From Elusimicrobiota bacterium (GTDB lineage: Bacteria > Elusimicrobiota > Elusimicrobia > Elusimicrobiales > UBA9959): DNA of 64,000 bases. The stretch covers positions 5,285 through 69,284 of the forward strand of contig DMXM01000003.1 in the NCBI GenBank assembly GCA_003482905.1, read 5' to 3'. Numbering within the stretch: position 1 is the stretch's first letter; each line of letters starts with the position of its first letter. The notes under the pieces were generated by a model that did no database searches, was not told where the DNA came from, and worked only from the letters and a program-made list of their open reading frames with translations. The position numbers and the translations under genes are program-made. Positions 26,028 through 61,400 of the stretch are shown piece by piece.

Positions 26028-26566
26028 ATTTTCTCCTCCGCGGCTTCGCTTTCTTTAAAGATCTCCATGCAGAGGTCCAAAAAGCGGTACGCCGGCGCTC
26101 TGAAACGAAAGGAATCCGGGCCTTCCATTTTGAGAAAGCCGAAGCGCTCCATGGTGCGCAGGGTCTGGCGCAGCTCTTCCTCGGTTGGCATGCCGGCTTC
26201 CAGCATAATGTCACGGTAGCGTTCACGGCGGAGGTGTTCCAGCTTATCGACAAAGAATAGGGAAGTCATTATCTGTTCTTCAGCGCTGGCCCCGGAGTCG
26301 GCCAGGGTTTCCACCAATATAAACATGAAGACGGCCATCCGGGAGGAAGTGTCGCTTATATCCACCTCCCCTTTGAAGTAATAAAAGCCGCGTGGATGTT
26401 TTATGAGCTCGAAACCGAGCTTAGCGAATAGTTCCGTGAAAGCGGCTTCGCCGTTGTGCAGGTTAAAATAGAGGTCCGCGTCTTCGGGCGCTATATGGCG
26501 GCCTTTGCGCAGCGCGTCAAAAACCTCGTCAAGGCGCGGCAACTCCGTGTTTTTCTCAGTTTCCAT
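26024..26566 (-). CDS. jetB: JetB/MksE-like small subunit (about 180 aa)
   Basis: Its position between the kleisin-like gene and the ATPase gene, and its size. The internal ATG at 26566 gives METEKNTELPRLDEVFDALRKG.... 4-nt overlap with jetC and 11-nt overlap with jetA. No strong motif, so the call rests on context. Confidence 0.5.
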   Translation of the reverse strand: METEKNTELPRLDEVFDALRKGRHIAPEDADLYFNLHNGEAAFTELFAKLGFELIKHPRGFYYFKGEVDISDTSSRMAVFMFILVETLADSGASAEEQIMTSLFFVDKLEHLRRERYRDIMLEAGMPTEEELRQTLRTMERFGFLKMEGPDSFRFRAPAYRFLDLCMEIFKESEAAEEKI

Positions 26567-39312: not shown

Positions 39313-41007
39313 ATGAAATATTGGGCATATGTCAGTAACGAAATACTCGGCCCTTTTGAAAAAGAAAAACTCCTGGAGCTTCCGTCTTTTTCCCCGTCGC
39401 TGCTTATATGCCCGCAGACGCCGGTAGGGGAAAAGACCGAGGACTGGAAAGAAGCCTCCGCCTACCCGGAACTGTCGGCGCTTATAGGCCCCGCGGCCGA
39501 AGGCGCGCTGAAATATTCAGCGCCCCCGGCGCCGGCCGCCCCGGCCCCCGCGAGCGAGCCCAGGCCCGAGCCCGCCCAACCCGCGGCGGCGCTTAAGCCG
39601 CTTACGGCCTCTTCCGTAGAGCCCGTAGCCCCGGCGGACCATAACATTGGCGGCGGCAACATTCAGAGCAACCGCTTGGGGAAGGCGCAAGCCGAACCCT
39701 CCCCTTCGCGGGAAGCGTCGGCGCGGACCGAGCGGCTGACCGCGGCCGGCTTCGAACCCGCTTCTGTTTCTCTGCCTGGCGGCGGGGCGGATAACACTTT
39801 CGGACAGGGGACCCCGCCCGCGGCCGGCGCCGCTCCCGGGGCTTTCGAAAGAACTGAACCGGCCTTCACGCCGGGCGCTGCGCCGGAACTTGAAAATTTT
39901 TCCAGGCCGGCTTTTTTCGCGGCCCCGGCAGAGCCCGCTCCCGCGGCGGCCGCTCCGTCAAGCGACGCCCTTGCGGCCAAGCTCGACTCCCTTGCCGGCA
40001 ATGCCGTCAGCAAGCAGGACCTTTCCATGGCGCTGGACCCGCTTCGCCTGAAACTTGACCAGATGGGCGAGGTAATTTCCTCTATAAAGAACCAGCAGTT
40101 CCAGCGCGACATAATGGATAAGCTGGCTTATCTTGAAAACTCGATCGGCGACATAAAAGCCGCCATGAAGACCGGCGCGGCCGCCGCCGTGCGCCCGCAG
40201 GCCGAGACGACAGCCTCCATAGCGCCGGCCCAGGCCAAAGAACCCAGCGGAAGGACCATTTTTACGCCCCCCCAGGCCAAAGGCGCCATAGTCGATACCG
40301 GGACCAGGAGATTCGATATCGGGTCCATTTTCAGGAAGCTGACGCGCCTTATATTAACCCTCGCCCTCCTTGCGGCGGTGGTCCTTGGCGGGATTGTCAG
40401 CCTTAAGAATCTCGGAGTCTTCGACGCCACCACGTTCATCCCCTTTCCCCTGCCCTTCGTTAAGAGCGCGCCGCCCCCCCAGCCCGCGGCCGAGCCTCAA
40501 CCCGCGCCGCAGGCCCCGGTTCCCCAGCCGGAGGAACAGGCCCGGCAGCCCAAAGCCCCTGACCTGTCCCCCGAAATAATATATTTCACCCGCACCTACA
40601 AGGCCGGACCATCGGGGCCGTCCCTGGAGGATAAGATAGCGGAGAACTCCGCTGCGGCGGGCGGGGACTACGCCAATGTCAACTGGCAGTTAAAACCGGG
40701 ACCGGAAGGAGTTTTTGAGATAGCCGGAGTGGTGCCGGCAAAGGCGGGTCCGCTGACCTTCACCTATGTCGTGGATTACGGCAAAAAGACCATCCTCCCC
40801 GGCGACGAGCGGGGGAAGGCGGCCTTCGACGCGCTGACGGCCAGGCCTCCCGCCAGGGCACGGGCCGCGGCCAGGGCCAGGAAAGCCGCTGCCCAGCCCA
40901 GGCAAAGAGCCCAGGCAAGGAAACCGGCGGCGGCGCCAAAACAGACGGAATCTAAAGAGGACGAATATGAGTACGTCTACGAGGAGGACGACGGCACCGG
41001 CCAGTAA
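39313..41007 (+). CDS. GYF_2-like domain protein with a P/A-rich linker, one TM helix and a basic/acidic tail
   Basis: The N-terminus MKYWAYVSNEILGPFEKEKLLEL...EDWKEASAYPEL fits the GYF_2 (DUF4339) pattern. TM helix LILTLALLAAVVLGGIV. A GGAGAG Shine-Dalgarno precedes the ATG. Confidence 0.6.
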   Translation: MKYWAYVSNEILGPFEKEKLLELPSFSPSLLICPQTPVGEKTEDWKEASAYPELSALIGPAAEGALKYSAPPAPAAPAPASEPRPEPAQPAAALKPLTASSVEPVAPADHNIGGGNIQSNRLGKAQAEPSPSREASARTERLTAAGFEPASVSLPGGGADNTFGQGTPPAAGAAPGAFERTEPAFTPGAAPELENFSRPAFFAAPAEPAPAAAAPSSDALAAKLDSLAGNAVSKQDLSMALDPLRLKLDQMGEVISSIKNQQFQRDIMDKLAYLENSIGDIKAAMKTGAAAAVRPQAETTASIAPAQAKEPSGRTIFTPPQAKGAIVDTGTRRFDIGSIFRKLTRLILTLALLAAVVLGGIVSLKNLGVFDATTFIPFPLPFVKSAPPPQPAAEPQPAPQAPVPQPEEQARQPKAPDLSPEIIYFTRTYKAGPSGPSLEDKIAENSAAAGGDYANVNWQLKPGPEGVFEIAGVVPAKAGPLTFTYVVDYGKKTILPGDERGKAAFDALTARPPARARAAARARKAAAQPRQRAQARKPAAAPKQTESKEDEYEYVYEEDDGTGQ

Positions 41008-43290: not shown

Positions 43291-44052
43291 TTACTGGCCG
43301 AAATCGAAGCCCTTGAACAGGTCTTCTTCGGCCTTATTCGCCCCGGCGGGTGCCGCCTGCCCGGCCTGGGGGAGCGCGGCCGGTTCCGGGCCCCTGGACC
43401 CGGGCAGGGCCTGCATGCGGCCGCGGCCCTCGCCCACCGGCTGCACTATGATCTTGCGCACGCCTTCGGCGAAGGCCAGGAAGCCGGTTTCCATGTTATA
43501 GTAAAGCCTGAAAGGGGATTCCTTCTGCTGCGGCTCATAAGCCTTGCCCAGGTTCATCTTCTGCTGGTCCCAGCCCGGGTTGTACACCAGCTTGCCGCGC
43601 ACGTCCACTTCTTTGTCCACCACTGGCAGGGAGAAATGTATCTTGTAGAGCCCCATCGTGTCGCTTATGCCCGGCGCGAAGGAAAGGTTGATAACGGCGC
43701 CCGCGCTCTCCTCGACTCCGGCGTACTCGTCGGTACCGCCTCCCGCGCTGGTCTTGGATTTGCCGGCCTCGGGCTGTATCTTTATGGTGACCCCTTCTAT
43801 GGGGTTGCCCTGGTAGTCGGTTATTATCCCCTGTATATTGCCGTCCAGGAACATCCCCATTTTTGTGGTGGAGAAGAACAGGAAATCCCTTTTTCCGGTG
43901 ACCTTCTTGGTAAGCGACAGGTCGCCGACCCGCTGGTCGGTGAAGTCCACCACTTTCAGGCTCTTGAACCCGCCGCAGCCGGCGAAAGCCGTCGCCAGCG
44001 TAAAAAGCAGGGCCGATCTTAAACCGATCTTTATTTTTTTCATGTATTTCAC
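43291..44052 (-). CDS. lipoprotein with a carboxypeptidase-regulatory-like beta-sandwich segment
   Basis: Lipobox LATAFAGCGG. IQGIITDYQGNPIEGVTIKI resembles CarboxypepD_reg. It lies 14 nt downstream of motB. Confidence 0.6.
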   Translation of the reverse strand: MKYMKKIKIGLRSALLFTLATAFAGCGGFKSLKVVDFTDQRVGDLSLTKKVTGKRDFLFFSTTKMGMFLDGNIQGIITDYQGNPIEGVTIKIQPEAGKSKTSAGGGTDEYAGVEESAGAVINLSFAPGISDTMGLYKIHFSLPVVDKEVDVRGKLVYNPGWDQQKMNLGKAYEPQQKESPFRLYYNMETGFLAFAEGVRKIIVQPVGEGRGRMQALPGSRGPEPAALPQAGQAAPAGANKAEEDLFKGFDFGQ

Positions 44053-44066: not shown

Positions 44067-44864
44067 TTACAGGCCTTCTTCCTCGGGGGCGGCTTCAGCC
44101 GGCTGCTCACCGGCAGGAGCGGTTTCAAAAGCCTGGTCCTGGACCGGGACGCCTTCGGGAGACGCCGGCTCCATAGTAGCGTCGGGGGCCGGGGGAGGCG
44201 GAACGGCGTTGGCGGCCGCGGCCGGCGGGCCGGTTACGGGAGCTTCCGGGTAAGGGTTGTTCTTTATGAAGAAGACCACCCTGCGGTTCTTCTTCCTGTT
44301 CAGTTCGCTGTCGTTGGGCACTATGGGGTGATTCTCGCCGTAGCCTACGGCGGCCAGGTGCTTGGGATTAAAATTGGAGCCCAGCAGGTACTTGACCACG
44401 CTGGTGGCGCGCGCCGAGGAGAGTTCCCAGTTGGAGGCGTACTGCCTGGTGGCTATGGGGACATTGTCGGTATGTCCCTCCACTATGATATCGTGCCTCT
44501 CGGAAAGTTTGCGGAGCACCGGGGCCAGCTTGGCCATCTGCACCTGCATCTGGTCGGTCAGGTCGGCCTTGCCGCTCTCGAAAAAAGCGATCTGGCTCTG
44601 CTCTTCTAGGGTAATGCGCATGCCCTCCTTATCCATGGCCACCTGCCCGGCCATCTTGCCCTCTTTTATCATCTCCTGCACGTCGGCCTGGGCCTTCTGC
44701 ATATCCTTGTTGAGGGCGGCGCTGAGGGCGTAGAGGATGACGAAAAAGCAGACCAGTTCCGTCATCAGGTCGGCGTAATTGACCATCCACGGCGGCGCCG
44801 GGTGGCCTATCTGGGCCACCCTGGAGTCATCCTCCGGGATCATCCCTCTGACTTTTAAAGCCAT
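44067..44864 (-). CDS. motB: MotB-type stator protein (OmpA-like peptidoglycan-binding C-terminus)
   Basis: Plug/TM region PPWMVNYADLMTELVCFFVILYAL with the conserved channel Asp. OmpA-like region VEGHTDNVP...NWELSSARATSV...NRRVVFFI. P/A/E-rich tail. Confidence 0.85.
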   Translation of the reverse strand: MALKVRGMIPEDDSRVAQIGHPAPPWMVNYADLMTELVCFFVILYALSAALNKDMQKAQADVQEMIKEGKMAGQVAMDKEGMRITLEEQSQIAFFESGKADLTDQMQVQMAKLAPVLRKLSERHDIIVEGHTDNVPIATRQYASNWELSSARATSVVKYLLGSNFNPKHLAAVGYGENHPIVPNDSELNRKKNRRVVFFIKNNPYPEAPVTGPPAAAANAVPPPPAPDATMEPASPEGVPVQDQAFETAPAGEQPAEAAPEEEGL

Positions 44865-44867: not shown

Positions 44868-45653
44868 TTAAGCGGCGGCCTCTTTCTTAACGGTCTTGCG
44901 TTTTTCCGGCTCCAGGTAGGCCTTCAGATTGGCTTCCACCACGCTCGGGGTGGCGCCGCTCTGCAGCAGCAGCACGCCGCGGATCACGATCTCTTTGACG
45001 AAGAGCTCTTCCTCGGAGCGGTGCTTCAGCTTGCCGGCCATGGGCAGAAACAGCCAGTAGCCGGACCCCAGGCCGTAGAAAGCCGCGGCCAGCGCCAGGG
45101 CCATGCGGCGCGGCACCTGGGCCACATCGTCGATGGAGGATAGCATCAGGATCATGCCCAGCACGGTGCCGATGATGCCGAAAGCGGGGGCGTAAGTTCC
45201 CAGCGCGTTGAAGATCTCGCGGCCGGCCTTATGGCGCTCGCGGATAAAGTCCAGTTCGGTCTCGAGCATGTTGCGGATAAATTCATGGTCGGCGCCGTCT
45301 ATGACCAGCTGCACGCCGCGCTTGAGGAAATCGTTGTCGATGGCCTTGGCGTCGGTTTCAAGGGCCAGGAAACCCTCTTTCTTGGCCTTCTGGGAGAGCG
45401 CCACAAAAGTGGAGACCAGTTTGGAGGTATCCTCGCCTTTGGAGGTCATGACTTTTTTAAGGACCTTGGTCACGCCTATCACGGAGGAAAGCGGGAAGTT
45501 GACGAGCAGCGCGCAGAAGGTGCCGCCGATGACCACCAGGAAGGCTTCGACATTAAGGAATGGCTTGAAGCCTGCGATGCCTTCGCCCAGGTAAACGGAC
45601 GCGATCACGAAACCAAAAAAGACTATTATGCCGGTGAATGTTGCTATATCCAT
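44868..45653 (-). CDS. motA: MotA/PomA-type stator protein
   Basis: 261 aa, four TM helices with a large cytoplasmic loop. C-terminal YAPAFGIIGTVLGMI...ALAAAFYGLGSGYWLFLPMAGKL, typical of the MotA/TolQ/ExbB channel family. Confidence 0.9.
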   Translation of the reverse strand: MDIATFTGIIVFFGFVIASVYLGEGIAGFKPFLNVEAFLVVIGGTFCALLVNFPLSSVIGVTKVLKKVMTSKGEDTSKLVSTFVALSQKAKKEGFLALETDAKAIDNDFLKRGVQLVIDGADHEFIRNMLETELDFIRERHKAGREIFNALGTYAPAFGIIGTVLGMILMLSSIDDVAQVPRRMALALAAAFYGLGSGYWLFLPMAGKLKHRSEEELFVKEIVIRGVLLLQSGATPSVVEANLKAYLEPEKRKTVKKEAAA

Positions 45654-45677: not shown

Positions 45678-45902
45678 CTACTTCTTCTCGAATCCCTCTA
45701 TGGGGTTCACGCATTTCCGCTCCGCGTAAACCTGTTTCTTATATTCCACCACCTTGGCTATCACCGATTCTACGGAGTCTTTAACTATAAACCTGTTGCC
45801 GGTGGCCAGGTTCAACACGGTATCGGGGGCGGCCTCGACGCTTTCTATAAGTTCGGCGTTCACCACCACGAGCGACCCGTTGAGTTTTTCAAGCTTTATC
45901 AT
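45678..45902 (-). CDS. flbD: FlbD-like flagellar protein (74 aa)
   Basis: MIKLEKLNGSLVVVNAELIESVEAAPDTVLNLATGNRFIVKDSVESVIAKVVEYKK matches the FlbD pattern. It lies directly upstream of motA, as in spirochaete and Bacillus flbD-motA-motB operons. The longer 193-aa track ORF is rejected. Confidence 0.75.
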   Translation of the reverse strand: MIKLEKLNGSLVVVNAELIESVEAAPDTVLNLATGNRFIVKDSVESVIAKVVEYKKQVYAERKCVNPIEGFEKK

Positions 45903-46014: not shown

Positions 46015-48309
46015 CTATTCTTTCTTGCCCTTAACGGCCCACTTGAGCCTGTCGGCCAGGGATCCTTCCATTTCTTTGTAGCTCTCCAGCTCCGCGGATA
46101 TTTCGGCCAGCCTGGCGGCGTCGGCCTCGCGCTGCTGGGCGGCGGAGGCCTGCAGGCTGAGAAGGCCGGCGTGCTCCGTCTCCAGCGCCCCCGCGCTTTC
46201 CTGGACCTGGAACTCCATCTGCTGCGCTCTTTGTTTGAGGAACAGAACTTCGGATTCAAAACGGGCGCGGTTCTCGCTTTCGGTTTTAAGCTGTTCGGCC
46301 TGGGCGCGGAGCTCGGCGGCCAGGCTGGCGGCCTGCGCCTCCGCGGCGGTTTTCTGCGCTGCGGTCACCGAGGACTGTTCCCGGAAAGCGGCGGCCTCGG
46401 CGGCAAGGCGCTGGCGGTCGGCTTCCACGGCGCGGGCGTATTTTTCGGCTTCAGCCTTCTGAGCGGCGGCGGCAGCGGCGGCGCTCTCCTGCCTGGCGGC
46501 CTCGGCCTCGGCCCTTGCCACCCTGGCTTCGTACTCCTTCGCCTTTTTATCTATGGCGCCCTCATAATCCATGGAGACGGCGGAAAGGCGGTTGTTTTCT
46601 ATCTCTAATTTATGCGCCGCACCCTGTACCGCGGAGAGGGATTCGCGCAGCTCTTTGATCTGCGCGGAATATTCGGTCTCGAGCTGGCGCCGGAGGGCGT
46701 TCTTTTCCTCTTCGGCGGAATTTTCATACTTGGCGCGCAGCTGCGCCGTCCTGGCGTCGAATTCGGCCTGGCGTTCCGACACCAGCTTCTCCGCGGCTTG
46801 CCTGGCGGCGGCCGTAGTGGCGGCCAGCCCTGCCTGCCCGGCCGCGGTTATCTTTAAAATTTCTTCCTGGTGGGCGCGCATAAGGCCGGCGATCTCTTCT
46901 GCGTGCTTGCGGTCCATCTCGGCGGCGTAACTGTTCTTCACGCGGTCCATCTCCGCGGCGCTGCCGCTCTTGACGCGGTCTATCTGTGAGACGCAGTCGC
47001 TCTTGACGCGGTCGGTCTCGGCGCGCATCTTCGCGGCCATAGCTTCCAGCTCCCCCTGGTGGGAGGCCTTGAAACTTTCGTTCTCGGCCTTAAGGCGCTT
47101 TATTTCCTCCAGCTGGGCGGCCATGTTCTGGGCCAACTGCATTTTTTCAAGCCGCAGCTGCCCGCGCTCTTTTTCCAGCACGGTATTGATGGCCTGCACC
47201 CGGCCTACAAAACCCTTCAGCTTAAGCAGTTCGGAAAGCGCCCGCACCTTTTCCCCGGACACATCGGCGATGGCCTTCTCCTTCTCCTGCAGCTGCAGCT
47301 CGAAACGCCCCTGGAGCTGCTTCAGCTCGTCGTTCTTCTCGGCGTTCTTGCGGTCGGAAATGGAGCCTATCTCCGCCTGGAGGCGGCCTATTTCCTTCTG
47401 CAGCTTCTCTACCTCGAAATTAGCCCTCTCGTCGCGCAGCTTGGCCTCGCCAAGGGCGGCCGCCTCGCGCGACCGCATCATGATATTGTCCGATTTAAGT
47501 TCGGCCAGCTGGCGCTCCTTCTCGGGGATCACCTTTATATAGGACTCTATGGAGGCCTTCTCGCGCTCGGCGCGGGCCACCTCGTCCTTCATTTTGGAGA
47601 GGTCCCGCTCCAGCATGGATTTCTCCATGGAAACCTTGCGGAACTCGTCCTCGGTCTCGCGCAGCTTTACGTCGGCGTATTTGAGCGAGCTGATGGCGGC
47701 CTCGCGGGAGGCTATCTCTTTCTGCCACTGGGCTTTCTCGTCAAGCCAGCGGCGCTCCATCTCCTGAAGGCGGTGTATGAAATGGCCCTCCACGTCGCGG
47801 CCCTGGGTCTCGCGCTCCGACATCTGGTTCTTGAGCGTCCCCATCCAGGTCTCGCGCTCCTGGGCCAGGCGGGTCTCCATTTCTTTTATCTTGGACTTGA
47901 GCGAAAGACGCTCCTCCTCCACCTCGTGGTCGCGGCGGTCGCGGCGCATCTTCTCCTGTATATCCTTCAGCGAAGACTCCACGCGGGAGGAAAGGGCTTC
48001 GTCCTGCTGATTCTTAAGTGTGGCCAGCAGGGCTTTTTCCTTCTCCTGGGACAGAAGTTTTTCCATGTCCGAGATCTTTTTTTCCAGCTTGTCTTTCTCT
48101 TCCTGTATCTTTTTAGCCTCTTCCGCGGAAGAGTCCTTTGCGGGCTGGGGGGCGGCCGCGGGCTGGGCGAACTGGGGAGCGAAAGGCGCCTGCGGCAGGG
48201 GCAAAGAAGGTCTCCCCCCCGGCGGGGGCGGGAAACTGTTGGGCTTGATCATGCCGGGAGGCAGCGGGGGCATCCCGGGTTTAGAAATTTTTTTATCCCT
48301 GTCGTCCAT
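46015..48309 (-). CDS. 764-aa coiled-coil protein with a proline-rich N-terminus
   Basis: PGMPPLPPGMIKPNSFPPPPGGRPSLPLP is followed by about 700 aa of E/K/R/A/L/Q-rich heptad-like sequence. Three 33-nt tandem repeats occur at 46936-47013 (DRVKS... units). Confidence 0.7.
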   Translation of the reverse strand: MDDRDKKISKPGMPPLPPGMIKPNSFPPPPGGRPSLPLPQAPFAPQFAQPAAAPQPAKDSSAEEAKKIQEEKDKLEKKISDMEKLLSQEKEKALLATLKNQQDEALSSRVESSLKDIQEKMRRDRRDHEVEEERLSLKSKIKEMETRLAQERETWMGTLKNQMSERETQGRDVEGHFIHRLQEMERRWLDEKAQWQKEIASREAAISSLKYADVKLRETEDEFRKVSMEKSMLERDLSKMKDEVARAEREKASIESYIKVIPEKERQLAELKSDNIMMRSREAAALGEAKLRDERANFEVEKLQKEIGRLQAEIGSISDRKNAEKNDELKQLQGRFELQLQEKEKAIADVSGEKVRALSELLKLKGFVGRVQAINTVLEKERGQLRLEKMQLAQNMAAQLEEIKRLKAENESFKASHQGELEAMAAKMRAETDRVKSDCVSQIDRVKSGSAAEMDRVKNSYAAEMDRKHAEEIAGLMRAHQEEILKITAAGQAGLAATTAAARQAAEKLVSERQAEFDARTAQLRAKYENSAEEEKNALRRQLETEYSAQIKELRESLSAVQGAAHKLEIENNRLSAVSMDYEGAIDKKAKEYEARVARAEAEAARQESAAAAAAAQKAEAEKYARAVEADRQRLAAEAAAFREQSSVTAAQKTAAEAQAASLAAELRAQAEQLKTESENRARFESEVLFLKQRAQQMEFQVQESAGALETEHAGLLSLQASAAQQREADAARLAEISAELESYKEMEGSLADRLKWAVKGKKE

Positions 48310-48390: not shown

Positions 48391-50337
48391 CTAGCGGCCC
48401 ACCTGGGTCTTGAAACCGGACAGCCATTCGACGGCGGCCGGGTCTCCGGACAGCGCCGCGTAGCGCTCGTAGGCGGCCACGGCCTCGTCCACGCGCTGCA
48501 GGGCGTAGTAGACGGTGCCCAGGTATTGCCAGGTCTGCGCGTTCCCCGCGTCCAGCGAGGAGGCGTATTCCAGGTACTGCAGGCTCTCCGGCAGCTTGCC
48601 CTGGTTGTAAAGGTCCATGCCGGCGGCCAGGTACTGCCCGGCCTGGGCGGACTGCTCCGCGGAAGGGCCGGCGGACGGTTCAGCCTTCGGGGCGGACATG
48701 CTTTCGAATTTGCGCTTGCGCTCGTCGCCGGAGGACATCTCCGCGCCGTCTATTATATAGACTTCCTGGGTGTTGCCCTGGCGCACGTTTATCTTGCCCT
48801 CCGCCTCCAGCGCCTTTACCGCATCCAGGATCTTCATCTGGGCCTCGTCCTGCAGGGCCGGGGTGATCTCGCCCGAGTACTCCATTATTTCCTTAATGGC
48901 GTTCACCGCGCCCTGCGACATGTTGGAGAAGAACTTGTTGGCGATGGCCGGGTCCGCCTTGGCCACGGCCTTGGCGATATCCTCGTTGGAGAGGTTCCTG
49001 ATGACGGTCTGCATATCGCGGTCCGGGAAATTGACGACATCCTCGAACATCAGCACTATGCGCTTGACCTTTTCGTAGATATCCGGCTTCTGCGTTTTGA
49101 GGTATTCGATGATATTCTTGCGGGTCGCCGGGTCGGAATCGTCCAGCATCTTCGCCAGCCGCTCTATGCCGCCCATCACGAAATCCACGTTCTCGCGTAT
49201 ATCCTTATCTATGGCGTCTATCTGTTCGCGGGTGGCCTGGCGCACGGTAAGGGCTTCCAGGGCCACGCGGGACTGCATCTCCACGGGCAGCATGGACAGG
49301 GCCTGGCGGGAGAGGTCCGGCTTGATGTAGCTGAGCACCACGGCTATCACCCACGGGTCCTCCTTCCTCAGCAGGAACAGGTAGATCAGCCGCTTCAGGT
49401 TTTCCTCGTTCAGGTACGTGAAAGGTTCAAATTTCTTCATACTCTCGTCCTCTTCTTCCTTCGCCTCCGCTTCCTTCTGCAGAAAATTCATGTCTATGCT
49501 CTGGTGCCCCTCCGTCTCCTCCTTACCCTCCCCTTCGCCGGCGCCGCCGCCTTCCTCCCTCTTATCCTCTATATTCACCTCGGCGCCGGGCTTGGCCATG
49601 AGCGCCTTGACGTATTTGCGGAAAAAGCCCCAGAGCGGGCCGAAGAGGAACAATAGCAGTATAAGGAAAAGCAGCGCGTAAAGCAACGGCAGGTAGACCC
49701 CGGGCCGTTTCAGGTCGTCGAACATGTTGTGAACATTGAACTTAGTCGCCTTAAAGACCACGGTCGGCGCGTCTTTCTTGCGGATCTTATAAGGGACGAG
49801 GAAGTCGTCCACCCGCTCGCGGGCCAGCTTCACGGCGGCCGCCGGCAGAGTATCGTCGTGTATTACCGTCAGCTGAAAGCGGGTTATCTCGTTCTCGAGG
49901 CCGTAGCGTATTTCCTGCACGCCCTTGGCCTGCTGGGCCTGCTGGCCCTGGGCCGCCTCCGGCCGTTTATTATCCCCGCCCAGCACCGACTTGGGCTTGG
50001 GGATGCCGGGCAGGATGAAATCGGTATCGGAGCCGGCGCCCTGGCCGGGCCCCTTTTCCTTGTACTTCTGTATTATGCCTATGCCTTCCTTGTTCTGTTC
50101 GGCCCTCTTCGAGATAACCTCCAGTTCCACGTCCGCGAAAACGAAGGATTTATTGGGCCCGAGGATGGGGTCGAGGATCTCGGTCTTTATCTTGGTCTCG
50201 GTCTCGCGGCGCAGGGAATCCTGCCGCTCCATCAGCGACGCGCCCATGGTGTCGGTCACCGGCGACGAGCCCGACTGGGCCGAAACCCCGGGCGCCGCCA
50301 TGGCCAGCAATATAAATATAAGCGCAAGTTTACGCAT
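48391..50337 (-). CDS. signal peptide, periplasmic domain, TM helix, FliG-like middle/C-terminal domains and TPR in one fusion protein
   Basis: - Signal peptide: MRKLALIFILLAMAAPGVSAQ.
- TM helix at about aa 214-239: VYLPLLYALLFLILLLFLFGPLWGFF.
- Acidic linker follows the TM helix.
- FliG-like blocks at aa ~305-517: LMFEDVVNFPDRDMQTVIRNL...IAKAVAKADPAIANKFFSNMSQGAVNAIKEIMEYSGEI...EAQMKILDAVKALEAEGKI.
- C-terminal TPRs: YLAAGMDLYNQGK...AQTWQYLGTVYYALQRVDEAVAAYERY. Confidence 0.7.
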   Translation of the reverse strand: MRKLALIFILLAMAAPGVSAQSGSSPVTDTMGASLMERQDSLRRETETKIKTEILDPILGPNKSFVFADVELEVISKRAEQNKEGIGIIQKYKEKGPGQGAGSDTDFILPGIPKPKSVLGGDNKRPEAAQGQQAQQAKGVQEIRYGLENEITRFQLTVIHDDTLPAAAVKLARERVDDFLVPYKIRKKDAPTVVFKATKFNVHNMFDDLKRPGVYLPLLYALLFLILLLFLFGPLWGFFRKYVKALMAKPGAEVNIEDKREEGGGAGEGEGKEETEGHQSIDMNFLQKEAEAKEEEDESMKKFEPFTYLNEENLKRLIYLFLLRKEDPWVIAVVLSYIKPDLSRQALSMLPVEMQSRVALEALTVRQATREQIDAIDKDIRENVDFVMGGIERLAKMLDDSDPATRKNIIEYLKTQKPDIYEKVKRIVLMFEDVVNFPDRDMQTVIRNLSNEDIAKAVAKADPAIANKFFSNMSQGAVNAIKEIMEYSGEITPALQDEAQMKILDAVKALEAEGKINVRQGNTQEVYIIDGAEMSSGDERKRKFESMSAPKAEPSAGPSAEQSAQAGQYLAAGMDLYNQGKLPESLQYLEYASSLDAGNAQTWQYLGTVYYALQRVDEAVAAYERYAALSGDPAAVEWLSGFKTQVGR

Positions 50338-52496: not shown

Positions 52497-55400
52497 CTAG
52501 TGTATAACGCCCACCTTGCGCATTATCACCTTGCTGCCCTTGGGGCTGGCCGCTTTCACCCTCACTATATAGCCGCCCTTGGAAACATAGCCGCCCAGGC
52601 CGTTGCGGCCGTCCCAGATTACGAAATTCGGGCCCAGCTTGCCGCCATCGGCGCCGCTGGTGAACTTGAATTCCCTCACCACATAGCCCAGCAGGTCGTA
52701 AAGGGTTATGGTCACCTCGGCGTTATCGTTAAGCGTATAATTAATGACCGTCCTCCCCTCAACGCCGCCTTTGCGCAGGTCCACCGGGTTAGGGTAGTTG
52801 GACACCTTACTGAGCAGCTCCGCGCCTATGGTGGTGCCGGCCGGGGTGGAAACCGCGGACCATTCGGAATGCAGGCCGGCAAAGTTCCAGCTGCGCACGC
52901 GGTAGGTATAGTACTTGCCGAAAGGCCTGGGGGTCTCGCCGGGGCTCACGGGGTCGCCTATGGTATAGATGTTGTTTATGGCGCCGCCGGTCTTAAAGCC
53001 GGGGATGGCGGCCACCGTATGCCAGACGGGGTTGGTGCCCTCGCGCTCCTGGATCTCGTAGGACATCACGTTGGATTCGCCGTCGGCGGAAGAATCCCAT
53101 TTAAGCGTATAGGCCTGGCCCGAAGACACGCCCTTGGCCACCTGCGGCTCCGGCGCGCCCGGCGTAGTGGGATAGGTGGTGTCTATGCGGTAGATCATTA
53201 TCGGCACGCCGCTCTCGCTCGGGATATAGCGCCCGTCGGCCATAATACCGCGCACGCTCAGCACGTAGCCGCGGTCGGACACGGTCTCGCCCCAGGCCGT
53301 ATGCGGCCCGCGGAAGGAGCCCTGCGCGCCGCGCTCGTTGATCTTAAATGTGGTCCCGTCTATCTTGGTCACCACCATTATCTCGTTGCCCACGTACACC
53401 ACGCCCTCCGCGGCGAAGCCCTCGGCCGAGACCACCGAGAACGAGGAGGTGTTGACGTCGATGCGGCTGGTCAGGTGCGTGAAATGGCCGGGCGAGAGCG
53501 CCACATTGGTGACCTTCCCCGCCAGGGCCGAGCCGGCCGACTGCCAGGTGTTCTTAATGCCGGTCGGGTCGGCAAAGCTGCCTCCGAGCGAGAGTTCGTA
53601 ACCGGTCACCAGCCCCGACGAGGGGTTCCACATGGCGGGAAGCTCCGTGGTCTTGGACGCCCAGACGGAGGGCACGGCCCCGAGCTCCGAAACGGCCAGC
53701 AGCAGCTTAACGTTCTGTACGTTGTCGCCGATGAAGTAAAGCGGCTTGCCCGTGCCGTCGTTTATGATCCTGTCCGGCACGTAGTCGATATTGGACTCGA
53801 AGTCGAGGAGGCGGTCCCCGTCGATATCGAAAGTGGGGATGCCGGAATTATTCAGGCTGATATTGTTGCACTTGCCCGATCCGTAATAATCGAAGTTGTC
53901 CGGGATATTGTCCCCGTTGATGTCTATCAGCGGCTCGTCGGCGCGGCAGCCGGAGGCCGTATAATTGGTCCGCCAGCGGCTGGTGTCCGCCAGCGGCAGA
54001 TTGCCGGCCCCCATCACCACGTTCCCGCTGGAATCCAGCAGCGCGTAGGCGGGATAACCGTTGGAGGCCAGCATCACCGGGCTGTAAACGGGCGTCAGCG
54101 GGATGATCGCCGGCGAGATCAGTATCTGGTTTGAATCCATCGGGTACGTGTCGGCGTAATGCTGGCCGGCGGCCAGCGGCATGCCGCCGACGCCGCGCAG
54201 GTCCGTAAAGGCGCCCAGCGTAAGACCCGCCAGGTGCCCCATGATGTCCGCACCCGAAAGGTCCGCGGCCGAGCTGATATCGCAGGCGAGGTGCAGGATC
54301 GTAGGCGCGGTGGAGATCATCATGTACGGCAGATTGCCGTCGGTAATGGAGATGAAGACACCGTCAACGAACGGGTTGGTGGCCGAGTGCAGGGTGAAGC
54401 CCAGGCGCTTGTCTCCCACCGGGCTGAAGGCCCCATCGCCGTCGTCCTTCCACAGGGCCACTCCGGCCAGGTCTCCGTCGCCGAAACCGACGGTGGTGCT
54501 GCTGATGCTGCCCGACTGCTGAAATTTGATCTGGCCGAGCATTACATAGTCCGCCAGGGTGGCCATGGTGAAGGTCATCATGGGCACGTTGCGCGTGTTC
54601 TTCTCGGCCGATTTCGGGGCGATATTGACGCTTTTCACCGTAACGTTCACGGCTTTCACCGGGACAAGGCTCGAACTGAACGGATAGATATCCACGTACG
54701 TACCCCTCGGCAGCGCCTTGCTTATGCCGACAAAGACGTTTGGCGAGATGTCGTGCGGGGCATTTACAACTATCCAGGACTTGTCGCGTATCATCAGGCC
54801 GACCTTATTGGCCTTTATGGCCATTTCGCCGAGGTCGTACACCGCGAAATACGTCTGCGGCAGCGGGCTAAGGGTCTGGCTCTGCGACAGCTGGATATGC
54901 GTCTGCGTGTTCAGCGGGTTCTCCTGGTCGAAGACATCCACCTTGCGCACCGCTACGCGGGCGGCATGGGTGACCACCGGCGTATTGAAGTCCCCCAGCT
55001 TCTCCCCCCTCGAAAACACCCTCAGGTACGGCTTGCCGGTGCCGGCGTCCACGCCGGAGCCGGAGTAGGAGGCCAGCTCGGCTTCACCGATATATATGCG
55101 GCCCTCGGCCGGGAAACCGGTCGTGGAGGCCAGCACCAGGTTGAACGGCAGCGTATCCGTGGAGGTGAACGGTATGGCCAGTGTCGACCTGGCCTCGGAA
55201 ATATTCGTATCGTTCACGTCCAGCATGTCGTTCTGGTTGGAGTCCTGGTAGATCCTTATGAACTTGACGTCGCCGTTCTTGCCGAACGGGGCGGCCGGGT
55301 CGTTGGAAGCGCCGGTGCGCTGCACCTTTATGGCGCTCCAGCGAGCGTTGCCCGCTTCGGTAATAAGGTTAAACCGGATCATCGGCGCGTTGATCTGGGC

Positions 55401-58400
55401 CTGGTTGACGCCGCCGGCCAGCACCAGGTCGCCGGCCACGTCGTTGCCGCCCATCACCACGTTGGACGGGATCTCCCGCACCAGCATGGGCATAGTGTTG
55501 ATAGGCGAGGTGGTAAGCGTGATGACGTTGGGAATGCCTATGGTGAAGTTCGCGGCCGAGGAGATGGAGAGGGCGGCCGTGCTGCCTATGATGGCGAACT
55601 GTGACATATCGTAGCTGATAAAGGCACAGGCCGTGTTGGTAGTTACGATTATAGGGGATTTCAGCGCTATATTGACGGTGCTGGACGAATAAGACTCGTT
55701 GCCGTAGCTGGCCAGGTACGGGTACGCGCCGGCGGAGTTGCTGGCGGTATCCACGGAGTCCAGGATACAGTTGTCGTTGGAGTCTTTCCAGACCTTTATC
55801 AGGTCTATATCCGAGTCGTTGGATGTCCCGCGGCGGCTCAGCCTTATAGCCTCCACGCGGGCCGAGGTCTTGTCCGTTACCAGGCGCATGGCCAGTACGC
55901 CCACGTTCTTATCGTTCTGCGTCACGCTCACCGGCGAGATATCCTCGGGTGTCATGGTGACATTGTTCATCGTCGGAAGCAGCGTGTTCATCTGGCTGAC
56001 CACCGGCGACAGGAACTGGGCGACATGGCCGGAATTTTCCGGGCCGAACAGGAAATTGGTCTCGAACGGCACCTCTATCCCCAAGACGTCGTTCTGGGGG
56101 CTCAGCAGAACATTGGAGAACCTGGACGTCTTGTCTATATCCACGGAAACGAAGATGACCGTGGGGGTTGACCTTATGACCACGTAATCCTGGTTATTCA
56201 GCTCCGGGTCCTTAACAGCTATGGTGGCCTTGCCCACCGGGTCGTTGACGCCGAAGCGGCCGGTGCCGATGAGGGTGTCCGAGGTGTTCAGGCCTGTGGC
56301 GGCGTCGCGGTCGAACACGCCGTTGCCGTTGTCTTTCCAGACCTTTATCACCTCCGCGTCTTCGTCGTAGCCGGCCAGGCCGGCCGGCTGCTTGCGGGAC
56401 AGCCTGACCCCCTGCCAGCGCACGCCGTAGCCCGACGTGGTCAGGGCCATCCGCATTACCGGGTAATTGAGCCAGCCCTGGTATACCATGCCGCCGATAA
56501 CGCTGTTGTTGGCGTGGTTGACCACCGGGGTATTGAAGGCCCCGCGGGTGACCGCGGTCAGGGCCCCGGCGGCGGTGCCGGCGTAACTTATTATTTCGTT
56601 GTCCACCACCGCGTAGCCCGAAGCGGGAATGCCCGCCGTGGAGGTCACCAGCCAGGCGGCGTCCACGGGACCCGGGCTGGCGACGTCCTGCGCCAGGCGC
56701 AGGGAAGGCGCGGAGCCGGCATTGTCCGGCGAGAAGATAGAAGCGGCCAGCACGGTCACGGTACTGGGGCTGGAGACGATCTCGCGGACCTTGGAAACAT
56801 AGGTCAGATTGGAATTAGCCGCGGAGAAGTAATTCGGCAGCGAGAGGGAGTTCTTGGCCGGATCGTCCGTAGCGGGGCTGTTCTGCGGCAGCGAATCCGC
56901 CTTAAGATAGGCGCCCAGGTAGCGCGGGTTGCCCAGCGGATCGTTAGGCATGGCCGAGGCGCGTATATCGTAGGTCAGGAAATAACGCGGGGACATGGAA
57001 TTATTGAGCGCCTCCAGGTCCGTGACCACGCGCCGCTCGGAGGCAAAATCCACCCGCGCGGTCAGGGGGCCGTAGATGGTATTGCCGAATGTGCCGGACC
57101 CGACCATAACGTCGGAGGCGCCGAGGAAGCCGTTATTGTCCGCGTCGTGCCAGACCTTGACCGCGGAGACGTCGTTTATGGCCGTGCCGTCCTGCATGAC
57201 CGTGCCGGTGGCGTAAACCATCATCCAGCGCCACATGGCGTCTGCCACGCTGGTCTTGATCGTGAAAACCATGACCGGCTGATTCTGCGCCTGCTGCTGC
57301 AGCGTCGGCCCAAGTACGGTATCGGTGGCCTTCACTACGACCTCGTCGGCGTACTCGCGCACCTTTCCCACCAGCGAGAGGGTCTTGCCGGGGGCGGTGA
57401 CGCCCACATTAACCGTGCTCATATGCTTCGGCGAGGTTATCATGAAGTAATCCGTGCTGCGCAGGGCCACGCCGATATATGAGAAGTTGGAGACATTGGC
57501 CAGCGGGTCGATGTCGTAGGCCACGAAGTAGTCCTTGGGCACGTTGTAAATAACCTGCCCGTCCAGCGCGCCGCCCGTTCCTATCATGGGCAGGACGGCC
57601 TGGCCGGAAACTACCGTGCCTGTGGACCAGTCCGCTATCGCGGTGGCCTCGGCGCCGCGGGTAAGCCCGCCGAAAGCGTTGGAAAGGACGTCCACGCTGG
57701 AATAATATATGACCTCTTTCAGGGACGGGTCGGCCTGGCCGTCGTTCATGATAAGACGGCCCGGCGCCATGGGGAAGGGGCTGTCGGCCGGGAAGAATTT
57801 TTGGATGTCGTAAACACGAAGCACCGTGTCTGTGGCCAGCAGCGGGGCCTTCAGCGTATCGTACGGGAAGGTGCGGACACTGGGGGCTATCAGCAGCACC
57901 TCGGTATCCTTCACCGTGCCGGTGGTCTCCAGCAGGCCGTCAAGGGTGGAGTCGTACCAGATGCTGATCTTCTTGACGTCCGTAACCTTGTTCCAGGCCG
58001 GGGTATTACCGTTCTCCGCCCCGGTCACCCAGCGGTCCAGCTTTAGGCCGCTCCAGATGGCCGACCCCTGAGAGCCGTTTATCTGCATCGTCAGCCTGAC
58101 TACGGCCTTATCCTTGTCGTTCTGGGTAACAAAAGAGGGCTTGGCGAAGTCGTTGGGCTGGGACTTGTTGACGTCCGCCAGGTAAACGATATCGGCCGTG
58201 GCGTAAAGCGGTATCGTGGAGGAAACTACCGGCTGGAAAGCCCCTACCCAGCCGTCGATCAGGTTGACGCCGGAGTTCTCAAGGCGGGCGCCGTGGGTCA
58301 TATTGGGCACGGAGTCCGGCCCGAACTCGTAGACTACGTAATAGGTGCGGGTGCTGATCGAAATGGCGCCGTCCAGGCCGGGGTTTATCAGCGGCAGGAC

Positions 58401-61400
58401 GAACGTGTCCGGGTCCTGGATATCGTAGGACGGCGGGTTCACCGGGTCCGTGACCTCCTTGTCTATACTGGGGGCGAAGATGCCGTCGCCCAGCGTCGGG
58501 TCGCCGCCGGAGGAGTCCAGGAACAGGCGCACGCTCTTCAAGTCGGCGCCGGAGCCCGTGCCCGTCTTTATGATCTTGAACGCCTTCAGCACGCCGGTAA
58601 AATTCTCGGTCCAGGCCTTTATCTCCAGGAAGCCGACGCGGCCCTGGCCCTGCTCCACGTAGGTGTACTGGCCCAGGGTCAGCGTGGTGGTGCCGACGGA
58701 GGGCTGCCACCAGGCCGCGATATCGTTGCCCTTTATCATTATGGTGGCCGGCTGGTTGCGCACCGGGCTGGTGGCGGTGGCGATGGGGAAGTTGTTATAG
58801 GCCACGCCCACAAAAGTGGAGTCCAGCACCACGTACGACGGGTTCTCCATCACCAGGGAGAAGCTGCGCGGCGTGGCGGCGACGGTGGACATGCGCACCG
58901 TAAAGAAGAAGTTGCGCGGCGTATTGGAGACCAGGGCGGCGGTGGATACCTTGGCTTGCAGGTCGTTAAAGTGCCAGGCCATCAGGCCGGGGTCGTAGGT
59001 GCCGCTGGACATAAAGATATCAACGGGCGCGCCGCCCAGGGAAGTTTCGCCGTCAAAAGCGCCGGTCTGGCCGAAAGTCGGGTTATCGGCGTACATGCCC
59101 ACTTCCACGATATCGGCCCAGTTCAGGGTGCCGGAGCTCTTGACCTGCACCGATTTCAGGTAGGCCGTCGGCGTCCCCACCGGCTCGGTCTGCATGGTCA
59201 GGCGCAGCATAGGCACGGGGGCCGGCACTACGGCAATGACCCCGTCGCCCTGGTAGATGGCGTTCTTATTTATGCCGTTGTTGGTCTTGGCGACCGGCAG
59301 GGGGTCTTCCGGAGACATATCCAGGGGCGTGATCCTCAACCCCGACAGGACGACGTCGGGGCTGGAAGCCGCCGGCATGCCGCGGGCGCCGTCGCCGGTG
59401 TAGCCGTAAATGCCCGGGATGTGATAGTCGGTAACGCTGACCTTCAAAGTCTCTACAATGGTATCCTGCAGCAGCAGCTGGCGCTCGCCGTGGTCGGCGG
59501 GCACAAAAACATAGTCGGTGGTGTTGGCCAGCCAGTCGCGCAGATCGGCGGTCCCCTTGGAATTGGTGGCCATTTTTATCTTGCTGACATAGTAATTGCC
59601 GTTCACGGGGTCGCCGGCCGCCACGTTGCCGAACTGGTCGCGGGCGCGCAGTGTGACGTTGCCGGGGGTCTGTACCCGCAGCGGGCTGGCCAGGCTGTAA
59701 CCGTGGTGCAGCGTGAAGTAGGCCGCCGCGCCGGGGGTGATATATGTTTCCTGGTTTATCTGCGGCAGGACGACGCCGTCCGCCGGTATGGAGGCGTCGG
59801 CGGTAAGGGCGGCGGTACCGACGATAGTGTCCCAGATATATACATTCGCGTAGCTCTGACCGGGGAAGATGGGGACGTCCAGCGGGTTGGTCTTGAGCAG
59901 TTTCCAGTTGGGATTGGAGGCCAGCACGGCCTCGGACGGGTCTATACCGCCGTACATGCTGTTGCGCACGGCGGTGAAGCGCACGGTGGCCGCGGAGGAG
60001 GTGCTGGTAGCGTTCCCGTAGCGGTCTTTCAGCACCACGCTCACCACGGTGGGCGTGGTGAGGTTCAGCGCGAAGTCGGCGTATTGCAGCGTGGTTCCAG
60101 CCACCAGGCGCCGGGACGGCGTGTGGAACACCACATGGTCCGGGGGTGCCGGCACCACGGTATAGGAGGAGATGGCCGGCAGCCAGCCCTTGGAATTTAC
60201 CGTATTTATTGTGAGCTGGTGCGTCGGGTTGGACAACAGCGTGTCTATCAGGTAGAAACTGGTGGCGGACTCGCCCAGCGCCAGCTTGGCGTAACCGGGC
60301 TGGGCCGTAAAGCTGGAAACCGACGGGGCGGAGAACCGCACGTCGCCGGTGGAGCCGGACTCCAGCTTGAACAGAACGCCGGCGCCTATCGCGTCTTCCT
60401 GGCCGGAGGCGATGGGGGTCGGGTTGCCGTAGCGGTCCTCTATGGCCATGGCGAACATCTGCGAGGTGGTCCCCGCCATCACGGTTTGGCCGGCGTTAAG
60501 GCTGACGTTCACGCGGTAAGTGAAGTCCGGCAGCACGTGCACGGGCTGGGTGGAGGCGGACCAGGCCGGCCGGTCCGGAGCCGCTATCTTTATCACCGGC
60601 CGCAGCGGTATGGTGGAGCCGTAAACGGCGGAGGCCGTGGTGTCCAGGTAGTAGAACGTGGCAAAGTAGGCATCCAGCGGTATATCCAGGAAAGTGGCCG
60701 TGGAGGCGAAGACAGGCGGGAAAGCGGCGGCCAGGGAACTGGAAGCCGAGAAAGAGAAAGCGTCGTTGACCTGCGAGGGCTGGCGGGTGAACGTGGAAAG
60801 GACGACCCGCACCGTAGCCGTGGCCAGGGACGGGTTGTCGAACATATCGCGCAATTCCGCCTCGAAATTCCGGACCAGGCCGAAGCTGTCGGTTATCCTG
60901 CCGGCCACCAGGGAGACCGGCTGGTTGCCGAAAGAAACCTTGGCTATATCCACCGGGTTCAGGCGCAGCGGGTGTATGGCCGGCTGCATGGAGCCGCTGC
61001 GGGCCTCAATCTGCCAGTAGCCGGGCCTGCCGCCCTCCCCGGTGTTCAGCGCCGGCGAGAGGCCGGAATAGGACGACGTCCTGTCATGGTAACGGAAGGA
61101 GATCTGCGTCTGGTTAGGCGGAATGCTGACGGTCTGGACGAACTGCGTGTTACCCTGGTCGCGGTAGCCGTAGTCGCCTAAAGTGCCGAAAGTACCCAGC
61201 GTACGGCCCAAAGCCGTGTGAATGGTTCCCTGGGCCGACGGCAGGCCGAGGAAAACGTCGGTCTGGCCTTCCCTGGTCAGGTTGTCGAAGTCGTCGCGGC
61301 GCTCCACCGTGAAGAACGCGCCGGCGCCGGCCACTTCCTGTATGCCGGCCGCCGCCGCCGCCTGGCTGGAAACGAAGAGCAGCTTGGAGGGCACGCCGCC

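Follow-up and report, generated by a model that had tools for sequence, protein, structure and literature searches.

A natural fusion of the flagellar rotor proteins FliF and FliG has been described in Chlamydiaceae, where a protein of about 330 aa combines an RBM2-like part, one further ring-building motif (RBM), a transmembrane (TM) helix and the FliG middle domain (FliG_M) only, and has been considered either a piece of a proto-flagellum or an accessory of the injectisome (Bergeron 2016, PeerJ, PMC4768692). Engineered FliF-FliG fusions of Salmonella and Vibrio assemble rings, and those of Salmonella rotate (PMC4768692 for Salmonella). In Elusimicrobiota, most free-living members were reported to carry motAB, flbD and fliG without flagellar structural genes, their role being called "unclear", and complete flagellar sets were found in only a few genomes (bioRxiv 10.1101/2022.07.08.499144, on magnetotactic Elusimicrobiota). 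Doud et al. likewise stated a "clear absence of ... flagellar genes" in Elusimicrobia (PMC7031533). Here, we have analysed a 64-kb stretch of Elusimicrobiota contig DMXM01000003.1 (the window), in which one gene encodes a 648-aa protein uniting the C-terminal half of FliF, the middle and C-terminal domains of FliG and a module of tetratricopeptide repeats (TPRs). The deposited protein that is 100% identical to it is named "hypothetical protein [Elusimicrobia bacterium]" and comes from an Elusimicrobia metagenome-assembled genome.

On balance, we consider it probable that this gene encodes a single-chain minimal rotor subunit of flagellar type, belonging to a non-flagellar envelope machine that runs on proton motive force (PMF). 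The match of divergent relatives to the FliF C-terminal family PF08345, the profile that links their N-termini to that of the window protein and the fold matches together identify the family as a natural fusion of the C-terminal half of FliF (RBM3/collar region and second TM helix, TM2) with FliG minus its N-terminal domain. Since the fusion always has a complete MotA/MotB stator beside it and occurs in a phylum that, by published accounts, mostly lacks flagella, it probably serves a proton-driven envelope machine that has gone undescribed. In a full-text literature search no description of the fusion architecture or of the conserved gene cluster was found; the paper of Méheust on groundwater Elusimicrobia has nothing on motility, and the MotAB evolution paper mentions neither Elusimicrobia nor the cluster. 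The gene content is known from a one-sentence mention, and the Chlamydia fusion is a partial precedent. The initial annotation of this gene, made from the sequence alone, had named such fusions as known engineered constructs and had called a native one with TPRs next to an orphan stator unusual; engineered ones do exist, but the Chlamydiaceae protein is a natural one (PMC4768692).

Domains of the fusion protein

The FliG-like part was recovered by three approaches. In addition to the Pfam matches (Table 1), phmmer against PDB sequences found the middle and C-terminal domains of Thermotoga maritima FliG (3ajc, 1lkv) at E about 5e-31 over residues 304-526, and in a Foldseek search with the full-length AlphaFold2 model FliG chains made up the top 13 matches, with FliF chains listed after them. 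For the C-terminal domain (FliG_C) superpositions included 1qc7_B (TMt 0.96, root-mean-square deviation (rmsd) 0.9 A) and 8ucs_H (TMt 0.93). The phmmer range agrees with the initial annotation, which had placed FliG middle and C-domain hallmarks at nt about 48787-49425, and the comparison of the model with FliG and FliF recovered both similarities. The nearest FliG is that of T. maritima, with 30-32% identity. The FliG_N domain was not found by Pfam; the single PF14842 match (E 0.005, below cut-off) lies over the middle domain at residues 331-413. The whole-protein FliG model TIGR00207 scored 110.1 bits against a cut-off of 226.7, with profile positions 112-337 alone matching. The FliM-binding motif EHPQ(R) aligns with E326-D327-P328-W329 and reads E(D/E)PW in the family, P328 and W329 being invariant and the H and Q of EHPQ absent in all 48 members compared. 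As judged from this alignment, the FliM-binding motif has been lost from the fusion.

The torque charges were mapped by alignment to T. maritima FliG and residue counting on the E. coli sequence, and tallied over the 48 family members. E. coli K264 corresponds to A459 of the window protein (Gln in 31/48, the position reading Q/A), R281 to G476 (Gly in 48/48), D288 to E483 (Glu in 48/48), D289 to I484 (Ser, Ile or Ala among the 48) and R297 to T492 (Thr or Ser). Only one of the five E. coli charges is therefore kept, namely D288 as E483. The torque helix holds 4 charged residues in the window protein versus 8 in T. maritima, with a family mean of 3.6, so that the impression of a helix poorer in charges than canonical FliG was correct. 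K/R482 and the Gly-Gly hinge G389-G390 are each present in every one of the 48 members, and further conserved features of this part include F431-E/D-D, E486 and Y487.

For the FliF-like part, the link was drawn through a fold search and through divergent relatives because direct sequence tests on the window protein found none. With a model of residues 30-250 searched against the whole PDB, Foldseek ranks 1-18 were all FliF MS-ring chains, mostly of the RBM3/collar or S-ring (E 5e-5 to 3e-2, probability 0.72-1.0), followed below by OsmC and, lower down, by PrgK and EscJ. The cut-off of PF08345 (YscJ_FliF_C, 23.8 bits) was passed by 8 of 10 divergent full-length relatives with 24.2-40.7 bits, for example P0339 (40.7 bits) and P0400 (35.7 bits, profile positions 2-147 of 147), and an N-domain profile built from the clade of the window protein matches the N-termini of those relatives with 33-68 bits over nearly its full length. 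In the AlphaFold2 model, the periplasmic part runs from a helix (35-59) and strand(s) at 64-82 through an insert (85-140) to strands at 141-161, a helix (166-179) and a strand (192-198). This predicted order, alpha-beta, insert, beta-alpha-beta, matches the split RBM layout that was described for FliF RBM3 and SpoIIIAG (PMC4768692). The insert shows conserved features, namely P110, G111, P113, R125-P126 and a Q-rich stretch. PF01514, which represents the SctJ-like RBM1/RBM2, was matched by neither the window protein nor the 10 relatives, and just about 190 periplasmic residues are present. FliF homology of the window protein is thus transitive or at the level of the fold, without a direct profile match. 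The resemblance to FliF that had first been suggested for the periplasmic segment holds for the fold and by way of the relatives, but not for a profile match of the protein itself. By equivalog standards the fusion belongs to neither FliG nor FliF, since FliG_N, the EHPQR motif, the torque charges, RBM1/2 and the TIGR00207 score are all wanting, yet it is built of their homologous modules.

Signal peptide and TM helix were called by a hydrophobicity scan and inspection. The N-terminus has a Sec-type n/h/c layout with a small-x-small site, and similar N-termini were found throughout the family. Two hydrophobic segments exist in all, the N-terminal one and residues 214-238, spaced by about 193 aa. 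Because there are only these two, the intervening segment would be periplasmic and the residues after 238 cytoplasmic, whether the N-terminus is cleaved or stays as an anchor. The flanks of the TM helix carry four K/R each, so that the positive-inside rule is uninformative, and the topology is based on the signal peptide, the logic of a single TM helix and domain homology. It is the topology that had been proposed initially (a signal peptide, about 190 periplasmic residues, one TM helix at nt about 49621-49698 and a cytoplasmic remainder, where the scan gives 49624-49698), and the positions given then were right to within a few residues. The TM motif P217...F232-x-P234-L235 is invariant in the 48-sequence alignment. 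Behind the helix, residues 240-303 hold fifteen Glu; the contact between FliF tail and FliG_N, both of which are missing, would be made unnecessary by the fusion itself. The C-terminal TPRs seen at the outset were confirmed by Pfam (TPR_2/TPR_16, residues 570-632), and this module is absent from some divergent relatives. The full-length model has a mean predicted local distance difference test (pLDDT) value of 72.8; it is confident for the periplasmic core, the TM helix and the FliG and TPR parts, and of low confidence for residues 85-140 and 249-300.

Compared to the Chlamydiaceae protein, the Elusimicrobia fusion is likewise a natural single polypeptide of a non-flagellated lineage, with a signal/TM segment, periplasmic RBM-type domain(s), a TM helix and a cytoplasmic region homologous to FliG, and both dispense with FliG_N and the FliF tail. 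In contrast, the Chlamydia protein keeps the RBM2-like (SctJ-like) part with an unassigned RBM and FliG_M only, it lacks FliG_C, the torque helix, the TPRs and a co-encoded MotAB, and its proposed partner is an injectisome, whereas the Elusimicrobia protein has the PF08345 RBM3/collar part, both FliG_M and FliG_C and an operon with FlbD, MotA and MotB. With the canonical rotor of FliF and FliG (Salmonella 8umd/7bk0, T. maritima 1lkv) it shares the RBM3-like domain, the TM helix, FliG_M, FliG_C, the Gly-Gly hinge, a partial MFxF hinge and one conserved acidic torque residue facing the basic MotA pair. It differs in being fused from two genes, in lacking RBM1/RBM2, the FliF C-tail and FliG_N, in its additional TPR tail and in reading E(D/E)PW for EHPQ; four of the five torque-helix charges are lost, and no export gate, rod, C-ring (FliM/N) or filament genes lie near it. 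The engineered constructs (Salmonella deletion-fusions; Vibrio FliFG, PDB 8z4d/8z4g) have the same covalent FliF-FliG link, and 8z4d was among both the sequence and the fold matches of the fusion; they differ in joining full-length FliF to (near) full-length FliG within a complete flagellum, while the Elusimicrobia protein is truncated and stands in a non-flagellar context. SpoIIIAG, which builds the ring of the sporulation channel, also has a split RBM with a beta insert, forms large rings and is a structural relative of FliF RBM3 (PMC4768692), but it is associated with neither FliG nor a stator and was not among the top Foldseek matches of the fusion.

Regarding distribution, two word-index searches for relatives gave more than 360 clusters each, the closest named ones being Elusimicrobiales such as GWA2_61_42 (88% identity; GTDB family and genus UBA9959). 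A species scan with one genome per GTDB species yielded 129 confirmed loci; the 80 of them that were listed, with identities reaching down to 42%, were all from Elusimicrobia. Still more divergent full-length relatives, some of them of 490-600 aa without the TPR tail, came from a profile search of 1.84 billion representatives, and the named ones were again Elusimicrobiota, except for a 4.9-kb contig labelled Thermoprotei that is probably mis-binned. Within this scope every match is restricted to Elusimicrobia. The ratio dN/dS, 0.15-0.35 against seven relatives, indicates purifying selection on the fusion.

The adjoining stator and the conserved gene cluster

The fusion is strictly operon-linked to FlbD, MotA and MotB. 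The presence of a MotA/MotB stator next to it, suggested in the initial annotation, was confirmed by Pfam and NCBIfam; it had been called an orphan stator, and it is adjacent as described, but instead of an orphan it is a partner kept strictly in the operon, and the charges that it turns towards the rotor have changed along with those of the fusion. At full length, MotA matches MotA of Clostridium sporogenes (E 1.5e-50) and PomA (1.6e-48), and the NCBIfam models MotP/MotA/PomA at E 1e-71 to 1e-65, below their equivalog cut-offs. The channel residue D32 of MotB is invariant in 55/55 relatives. In the MotA loop, the basic pair aligned to PomA R88/K89 is kept, with K91 invariant and position 92 K/R in the 61 relatives compared, and E99, the equivalent of E98, is Gln in 37 and Glu in 24 of them. 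The pairs known from E. coli are MotA R90 with FliG D288/D289 and MotA E98 with FliG R281 (PMC12505986). Judged by these alignments, the K91/K92-E483 pair is kept on both partners and the E98-R281 pair is weakened on both. We read the Gly on the rotor side and the frequent Gln on the stator side of the same pair, together with the retained Lys-Glu pair, as evidence that the fusion and MotA may still contact each other.

On the minus strand of the window, the genes are ordered as the 3786-aa protein, the PorV-like barrel with TPRs, the fusion, the coiled-coil protein, FlbD, MotA, MotB and the lipoprotein (Table 1). By tblastn on the 80 loci, down to 42% identity, the order from the PorV-TPR gene to the lipoprotein gene was found in nearly every sufficiently long contig. 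The housekeeping genes mnmA and ddl lie next to the cluster across the phylum, and it is a single-locus, vertically conserved unit.

Table 1. Position and basis of assignment of the fusion gene, its domains and the cluster genes (window positions)
Feature	Position	Strand	Basis or remark
Whole gene, 648-aa FliF(C-half)-FliG(M+C)-TPR fusion protein	48391..50337	-	ORF (open reading frame), ATG start
Putative signal peptide, residues 1-20, MRKLALIFILLAMAAPGVSA/QS	50278..50337	-	hydrophobic segment and VSA-Q cleavage-type site
Periplasmic FliF RBM3/collar-like domain, residues 35-198	49744..50235	-	AlphaFold2 models, Foldseek, PF08345 in relatives
Single TM helix, residues 214-238	49624..49698	-	KD (Kyte-Doolittle) 2.77; invariant P217...F232-x-P234-L235 motif
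Acidic disordered cytoplasmic linker, residues 249-300	49438..49593	-	pLDDT < 50; in place of FliF C-tail and FliG_N
FliG middle domain, residues 322-384	49186..49374	-	PF14841 40.7 bits, cut-off 25, 2.8e-10
FliG C-terminal (torque) domain, residues 412-517	48787..49104	-	PF01706 88.7 bits, cut-off 23.3, 3.6e-25
Torque-helix equivalent, residues 470-492, FSNMSQGAVNAIKEIMEYSGEIT	48862..48930	-	T. maritima FliG alignment
Cytoplasmic C-terminal TPR module, residues 566-648	48394..48642	-	TPR_2, TPR_16, TPR_19; pLDDT > 90
3786-aa upstream protein, weak type-A-like C-terminal sorting domain (CTD) of the type IX secretion system (T9SS)	52497..63857	-	FlgD_ig E 4e-4, TIGR04183 E 0.005
PorV/PorQ-family outer-membrane beta-barrel with C-terminal TPRs, 538 aa	50549..52165	-	NF033709 PorV_fam; UPF0164, TPR
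Coiled-coil protein, 764 aa, Pro-rich N-terminus, downstream gene	46015..48309	-	conserved part roughly residues 10-330
FlbD, 74 aa, stator accessory protein	45678..45902	-	PF06289 84.5 bits; syntenic
MotA, 261 aa, flagellar-type stator A subunit	44868..45653	-	PF01618 98.3 bits
MotB, 265 aa, plug, channel Asp32, OmpA-like peptidoglycan-binding domain	44067..44864	-	PF13677 45.1 bits, PF00691 67.1 bits
Conserved lipoprotein, 253 aa, LATAFAGC lipobox-like	43291..44052	-	weak CarboxypepD_reg match

The barrel scored 110.7 bits with NF033709 (cut-off 90, residues 49-322) and did not reach the equivalogs of T9SS PorV and PorQ; its gene is syntenic wherever the contig reaches upstream of the fusion, except in loci L045 and L083. 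All close relatives have the giant ORF upstream, as do L069, L080 and L081. Besides its weak T9SS-type tail, the 3786-aa protein shows almost no recognisable domains. The 764-aa coiled-coil protein had no Pfam, NCBIfam or PADLOC match, and tblastn carried it to distant loci at E 1e-35 to 1e-53 over the N-terminal third to two-thirds. Its length ranges from about 480 to 985 aa between lineages, where the long C-terminal coil varies, and its N-terminal PPxP-rich stretch could be a ligand of TPRs. The idea that it is a derivative of FliH or FliJ was dropped, no supporting Pfam, NCBIfam or PADLOC match at E <= 1 having been found for five homologues. The lipoprotein is 42-49% identical in distant loci and had no PDB sequence match at E <= 1.

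Some divergent loci differ in their surroundings. In L081, the fusion is preceded by a 16,931-aa gene call and then a UPF0164/PorV-like barrel with TPRs, and it is followed in order by MotA, MotB, an 824-aa protein, another UPF0164 barrel, an FlgD_ig-tailed protein and a PilZ protein; the upstream gene call (L081 1-8090) would rank among the largest bacterial proteins. In L082, an fn3 and CHU_C protein is followed by a PorP/SprF-like barrel (25.8 bits, cut-off 22.3), then by a CHU_C protein, a histidine kinase, a response regulator and a TPR protein, after which come the fusion, MotA and two MotB. The fusion of this locus is without TPRs, and its upstream region (L082 1129-8408) holds the fn3 protein, the small protein with CHU_C (T9SS type-B sorting), the barrel and the kinase-regulator pair. 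L083 carries the fusion, a 985-aa protein, FlbD and MotA up to the contig end. In L068 (16403-19167), from a distant lineage, a caspase-domain (Peptidase_C14) protein takes the position of the lipoprotein after MotB and is followed by a DUF4384 protein with a weak FlgT_N match. The ORFs scanned in the 64-kb window included no other flagellar gene and none for an export gate, and the genes called in L081-L083 and the nearby ORFs covered in L052 and L068 likewise held no other flagellar gene. SprA, PorK/N and PorU were not seen in the regions examined.

Elsewhere in the window, the plus-strand gene at 39313-41007 encodes a 564-aa protein rich in Pro and Ala, which has a single TM helix (residues 346-364) and gave no family match; close relatives keep it on the opposite strand where the cluster region ends, with 36-55% identity and more in two loci. 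Two tandem GGDEF diguanylate cyclases, one of them with GAF, lie at 17839-20426 (minus strand), and control of the motor by cyclic di-GMP is conceivable; the PilZ protein mentioned above adjoins the divergent cluster copy in L081. A four-gene Mks/Wadjet-like set at 22468-27782 (minus strand) comprises genes for a protein of 408 aa, for MksE (Pfam 1.4e-33), for an SMC-like protein of 905 aa with weak LmuB/AriA ATPase matches and for a 281-aa protein that carries DUF7281 and matches JetD (PADLOC 4e-7), and looks like a divergent condensin-type defence system against plasmids or phages. Directly beside it, at 20516-22380 (minus strand), a pair of AbiEi antitoxin and AbiEii nucleotidyltransferase toxin (type IV toxin-antitoxin system or abortive infection) makes up with these genes a small defence island.

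A putative envelope machine and its rivals

In the machine that we favour, the periplasmic FliF-like domain, a split RBM3 with an insert at the collar position, would run into a helix resembling FliF TM2, and the flexible acidic linker would join this helix covalently to FliG_M and FliG_C and then to the TPR module. The RBM3-like domain and the armadillo-repeat (ARM) domains of the FliG part may drive oligomerisation into a ring or an arc in the inner membrane, and peptidoglycan-anchored, FlbD-assisted and PMF-driven MotA5B2 units would push FliG_C through the retained Lys-Glu contact. The collar-position insert and the invariant TM motif could engage the lipoprotein and the PorV-like barrel, the latter by its TPR arm, and movement would pass through the collar-like insert in the periplasm to the lipoprotein and the barrel in the outer membrane. 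On the cytoplasmic side, the TPR module and the coiled-coil protein may form a scaffold. The output would be a task of the outer envelope, most plausibly export, anchoring or gliding-type movement of the giant CTD-bearing surface proteins. The CTD-like tails and the PorP/SprF-like and UPF0164 outer-membrane proteins beside divergent copies of the fusion were counted in favour of this proposal. Its fullest form, a non-flagellar rotary nanomachine in which a one-gene FliF/FliG ring is turned by FlbD-assisted MotAB and coupled via the lipoprotein and the PorV-like barrel to the export or movement of a giant CTD adhesin, is one we put forward tentatively, as possible but on the doubtful side. It recalls the GldLM/PorLM motor of the T9SS in Bacteroidota, which is also a PMF-driven 5:2 motor of the inner membrane whose genes stand beside PorV/PorP-family outer-membrane barrels and very large surface proteins with T9SS-type sorting domains. 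However, the Elusimicrobia motor consists of MotAB and FlbD with a rotor of FliF/FliG type and not of GldL/GldM, and the CTD matches in the window are below threshold; the analogy is functional speculation and implies no homology of the motors.

Several observations weigh against this proposal. The window protein had no YscJ_FliF or YscJ_FliF_C match in Pfam at E <= 0.01, and a 20-sequence N-domain profile searched against PDB sequences gave no FliF at E <= 10, only a spurious TM match to LptG at E about 2. The fold matches to FliF, with the E-values given above, are modest, with TM-scores of 0.3-0.5 and an rmsd of about 13 A, low values that fit with an unmodelled insert and a dangling TM helix; the insert at 85-140 is conserved but was not modelled (pLDDT < 50). 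Ring formation, rotation and the contact with MotA are deduced solely from homology and co-variation, and surface-protein transport is tied to the cluster by context only, because the giant protein is missing within 8-10 kb in many distant loci and the CTD matches of the 3786-aa protein (residues 3688-3771) are both below cut-off. Finally, some Elusimicrobiota, few as they are, have full flagellar sets; the lack of flagella in the phylum is taken from published statements, and our own scan for flagellar genes covers the 64-kb window.

The loss of most torque-helix charges and of the FliM site would also suit a PMF-driven force transducer without a rotating ring or any MS-ring-like oligomer, in which MotA5B2 pushes FliG_C in the manner of TolA/TonB or GltG/J, and the fusion serves as a membrane adaptor, static or moving laterally, through which pulling or conformational work crosses the periplasm and reaches the PorV-like outer-membrane protein. 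The weak RBM3-like fold match with its unmodelled collar-position insert points the same way, as do the outer-membrane barrel with periplasmic TPRs and the lipoprotein in the cluster, and many 5:2 motors drive non-rotary outputs at the outer membrane (PMC12204202). On the other hand, RBM domains build rings and every top fold match was a chain of ring-forming FliF, the Gly-Gly hinge and both FliG ARM domains that serve FliG-FliG stacking are conserved, and the stator, with its FlbD, belongs to the flagellar MotA/PomA type rather than to the Tol/Exb type, so that we hold such a transducer to be rather unlikely. The homologous parts are all flagellar, and the few Elusimicrobiota with complete flagellar gene sets leave room for a genuine motor component, such as a paralogous or alternative FliF/FliG forming an extra rotor ring or a stator scaffold; the order flbD-motA-motB is like that of flagellar operons. 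This is improbable in view of the missing FliG_N, FliF tail, RBM1/2 and EHPQR FliM site, of the absence of other flagellar genes from the ORFs scanned in the window and from the genes or ORFs covered in the five loci named above, of the literature, which places these genes in lineages without flagellar structural genes, and of neighbours that are an outer-membrane barrel and CTD proteins instead of rod and hook genes. Both flbD-motA-motB and fliF-fliG are orders that resemble the flagellar operons of Firmicutes, spirochaetes and Thermotogae. Given also the proximity of the FliG part to T. maritima FliG, derivation from a flagellar ancestor is therefore favoured over a primordial state, and survival of a pre-flagellar rotor-stator module is very improbable.

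A role in defence was considered as well, since MotB matches ZorB models at E 5e-20 and the Wadjet-like and AbiE genes lie elsewhere in the window: a MotAB-based sensor, as in the anti-phage system Zorya, could perceive perturbation of the envelope and have the FliG/TPR protein as its effector or adaptor. This match is explained by the shared MotB/OmpA homology. MotA has neither a ZorA match nor the long ZorA tail, no ZorC/D-like gene was found and the other five proteins had no PADLOC match; moreover, the cluster is vertical, single-locus and syntenic beside mnmA and ddl across the phylum, unlike mobile defence islands. With PADLOC matching MotB only, this explanation was rejected, and we give it a very slight chance. 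Slighter still is the chance of a functionless, decaying relic of a lost flagellum, to which the lost torque-helix charges and FliM site might otherwise point. The ORFs are intact in 129 species, with dN/dS in the range given above, MotB D32, MotA K91, FliG G389-G390, E483 and the TM motif are invariant, and the synteny of the seven genes is conserved; these conservation data effectively refute it.

Meaning for Elusimicrobiota and the flagellar motor

Among rotary nanomachines the flagellar motor is the paradigm, and it has long been asked how the parts for rotor, stator and export came to be joined in it, or can be taken apart. The Elusimicrobia fusion would represent a natural minimal rotor, in which the RBM3 region of the MS-ring, a TM helix and FliG_MC form one chain, without C-ring, export gate or rod, and which is kept together with a complete stator throughout a phylum that, by published accounts, has largely no flagella. 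It can be used to ask which portions of FliF and FliG are enough to assemble a ring and to receive torque, and to test whether one Lys-Glu charge pair is sufficient at the interface of rotor and stator. Comparison with the Chlamydia FliF-FliG(M) protein may also tell how flagellar modules get repurposed.

For Elusimicrobiota, magnetotactic ones included, the fusion offers a concrete structural hypothesis for the motAB, flbD and fliG genes of flagellum-less members. The PorV/PorP-like barrels and giant CTD proteins nearby hint at a new way of powering surface-protein transport or gliding. If this is true, a "flagellar motor without a flagellum" would drive gliding-type motility or secretion across free-living Elusimicrobiota.

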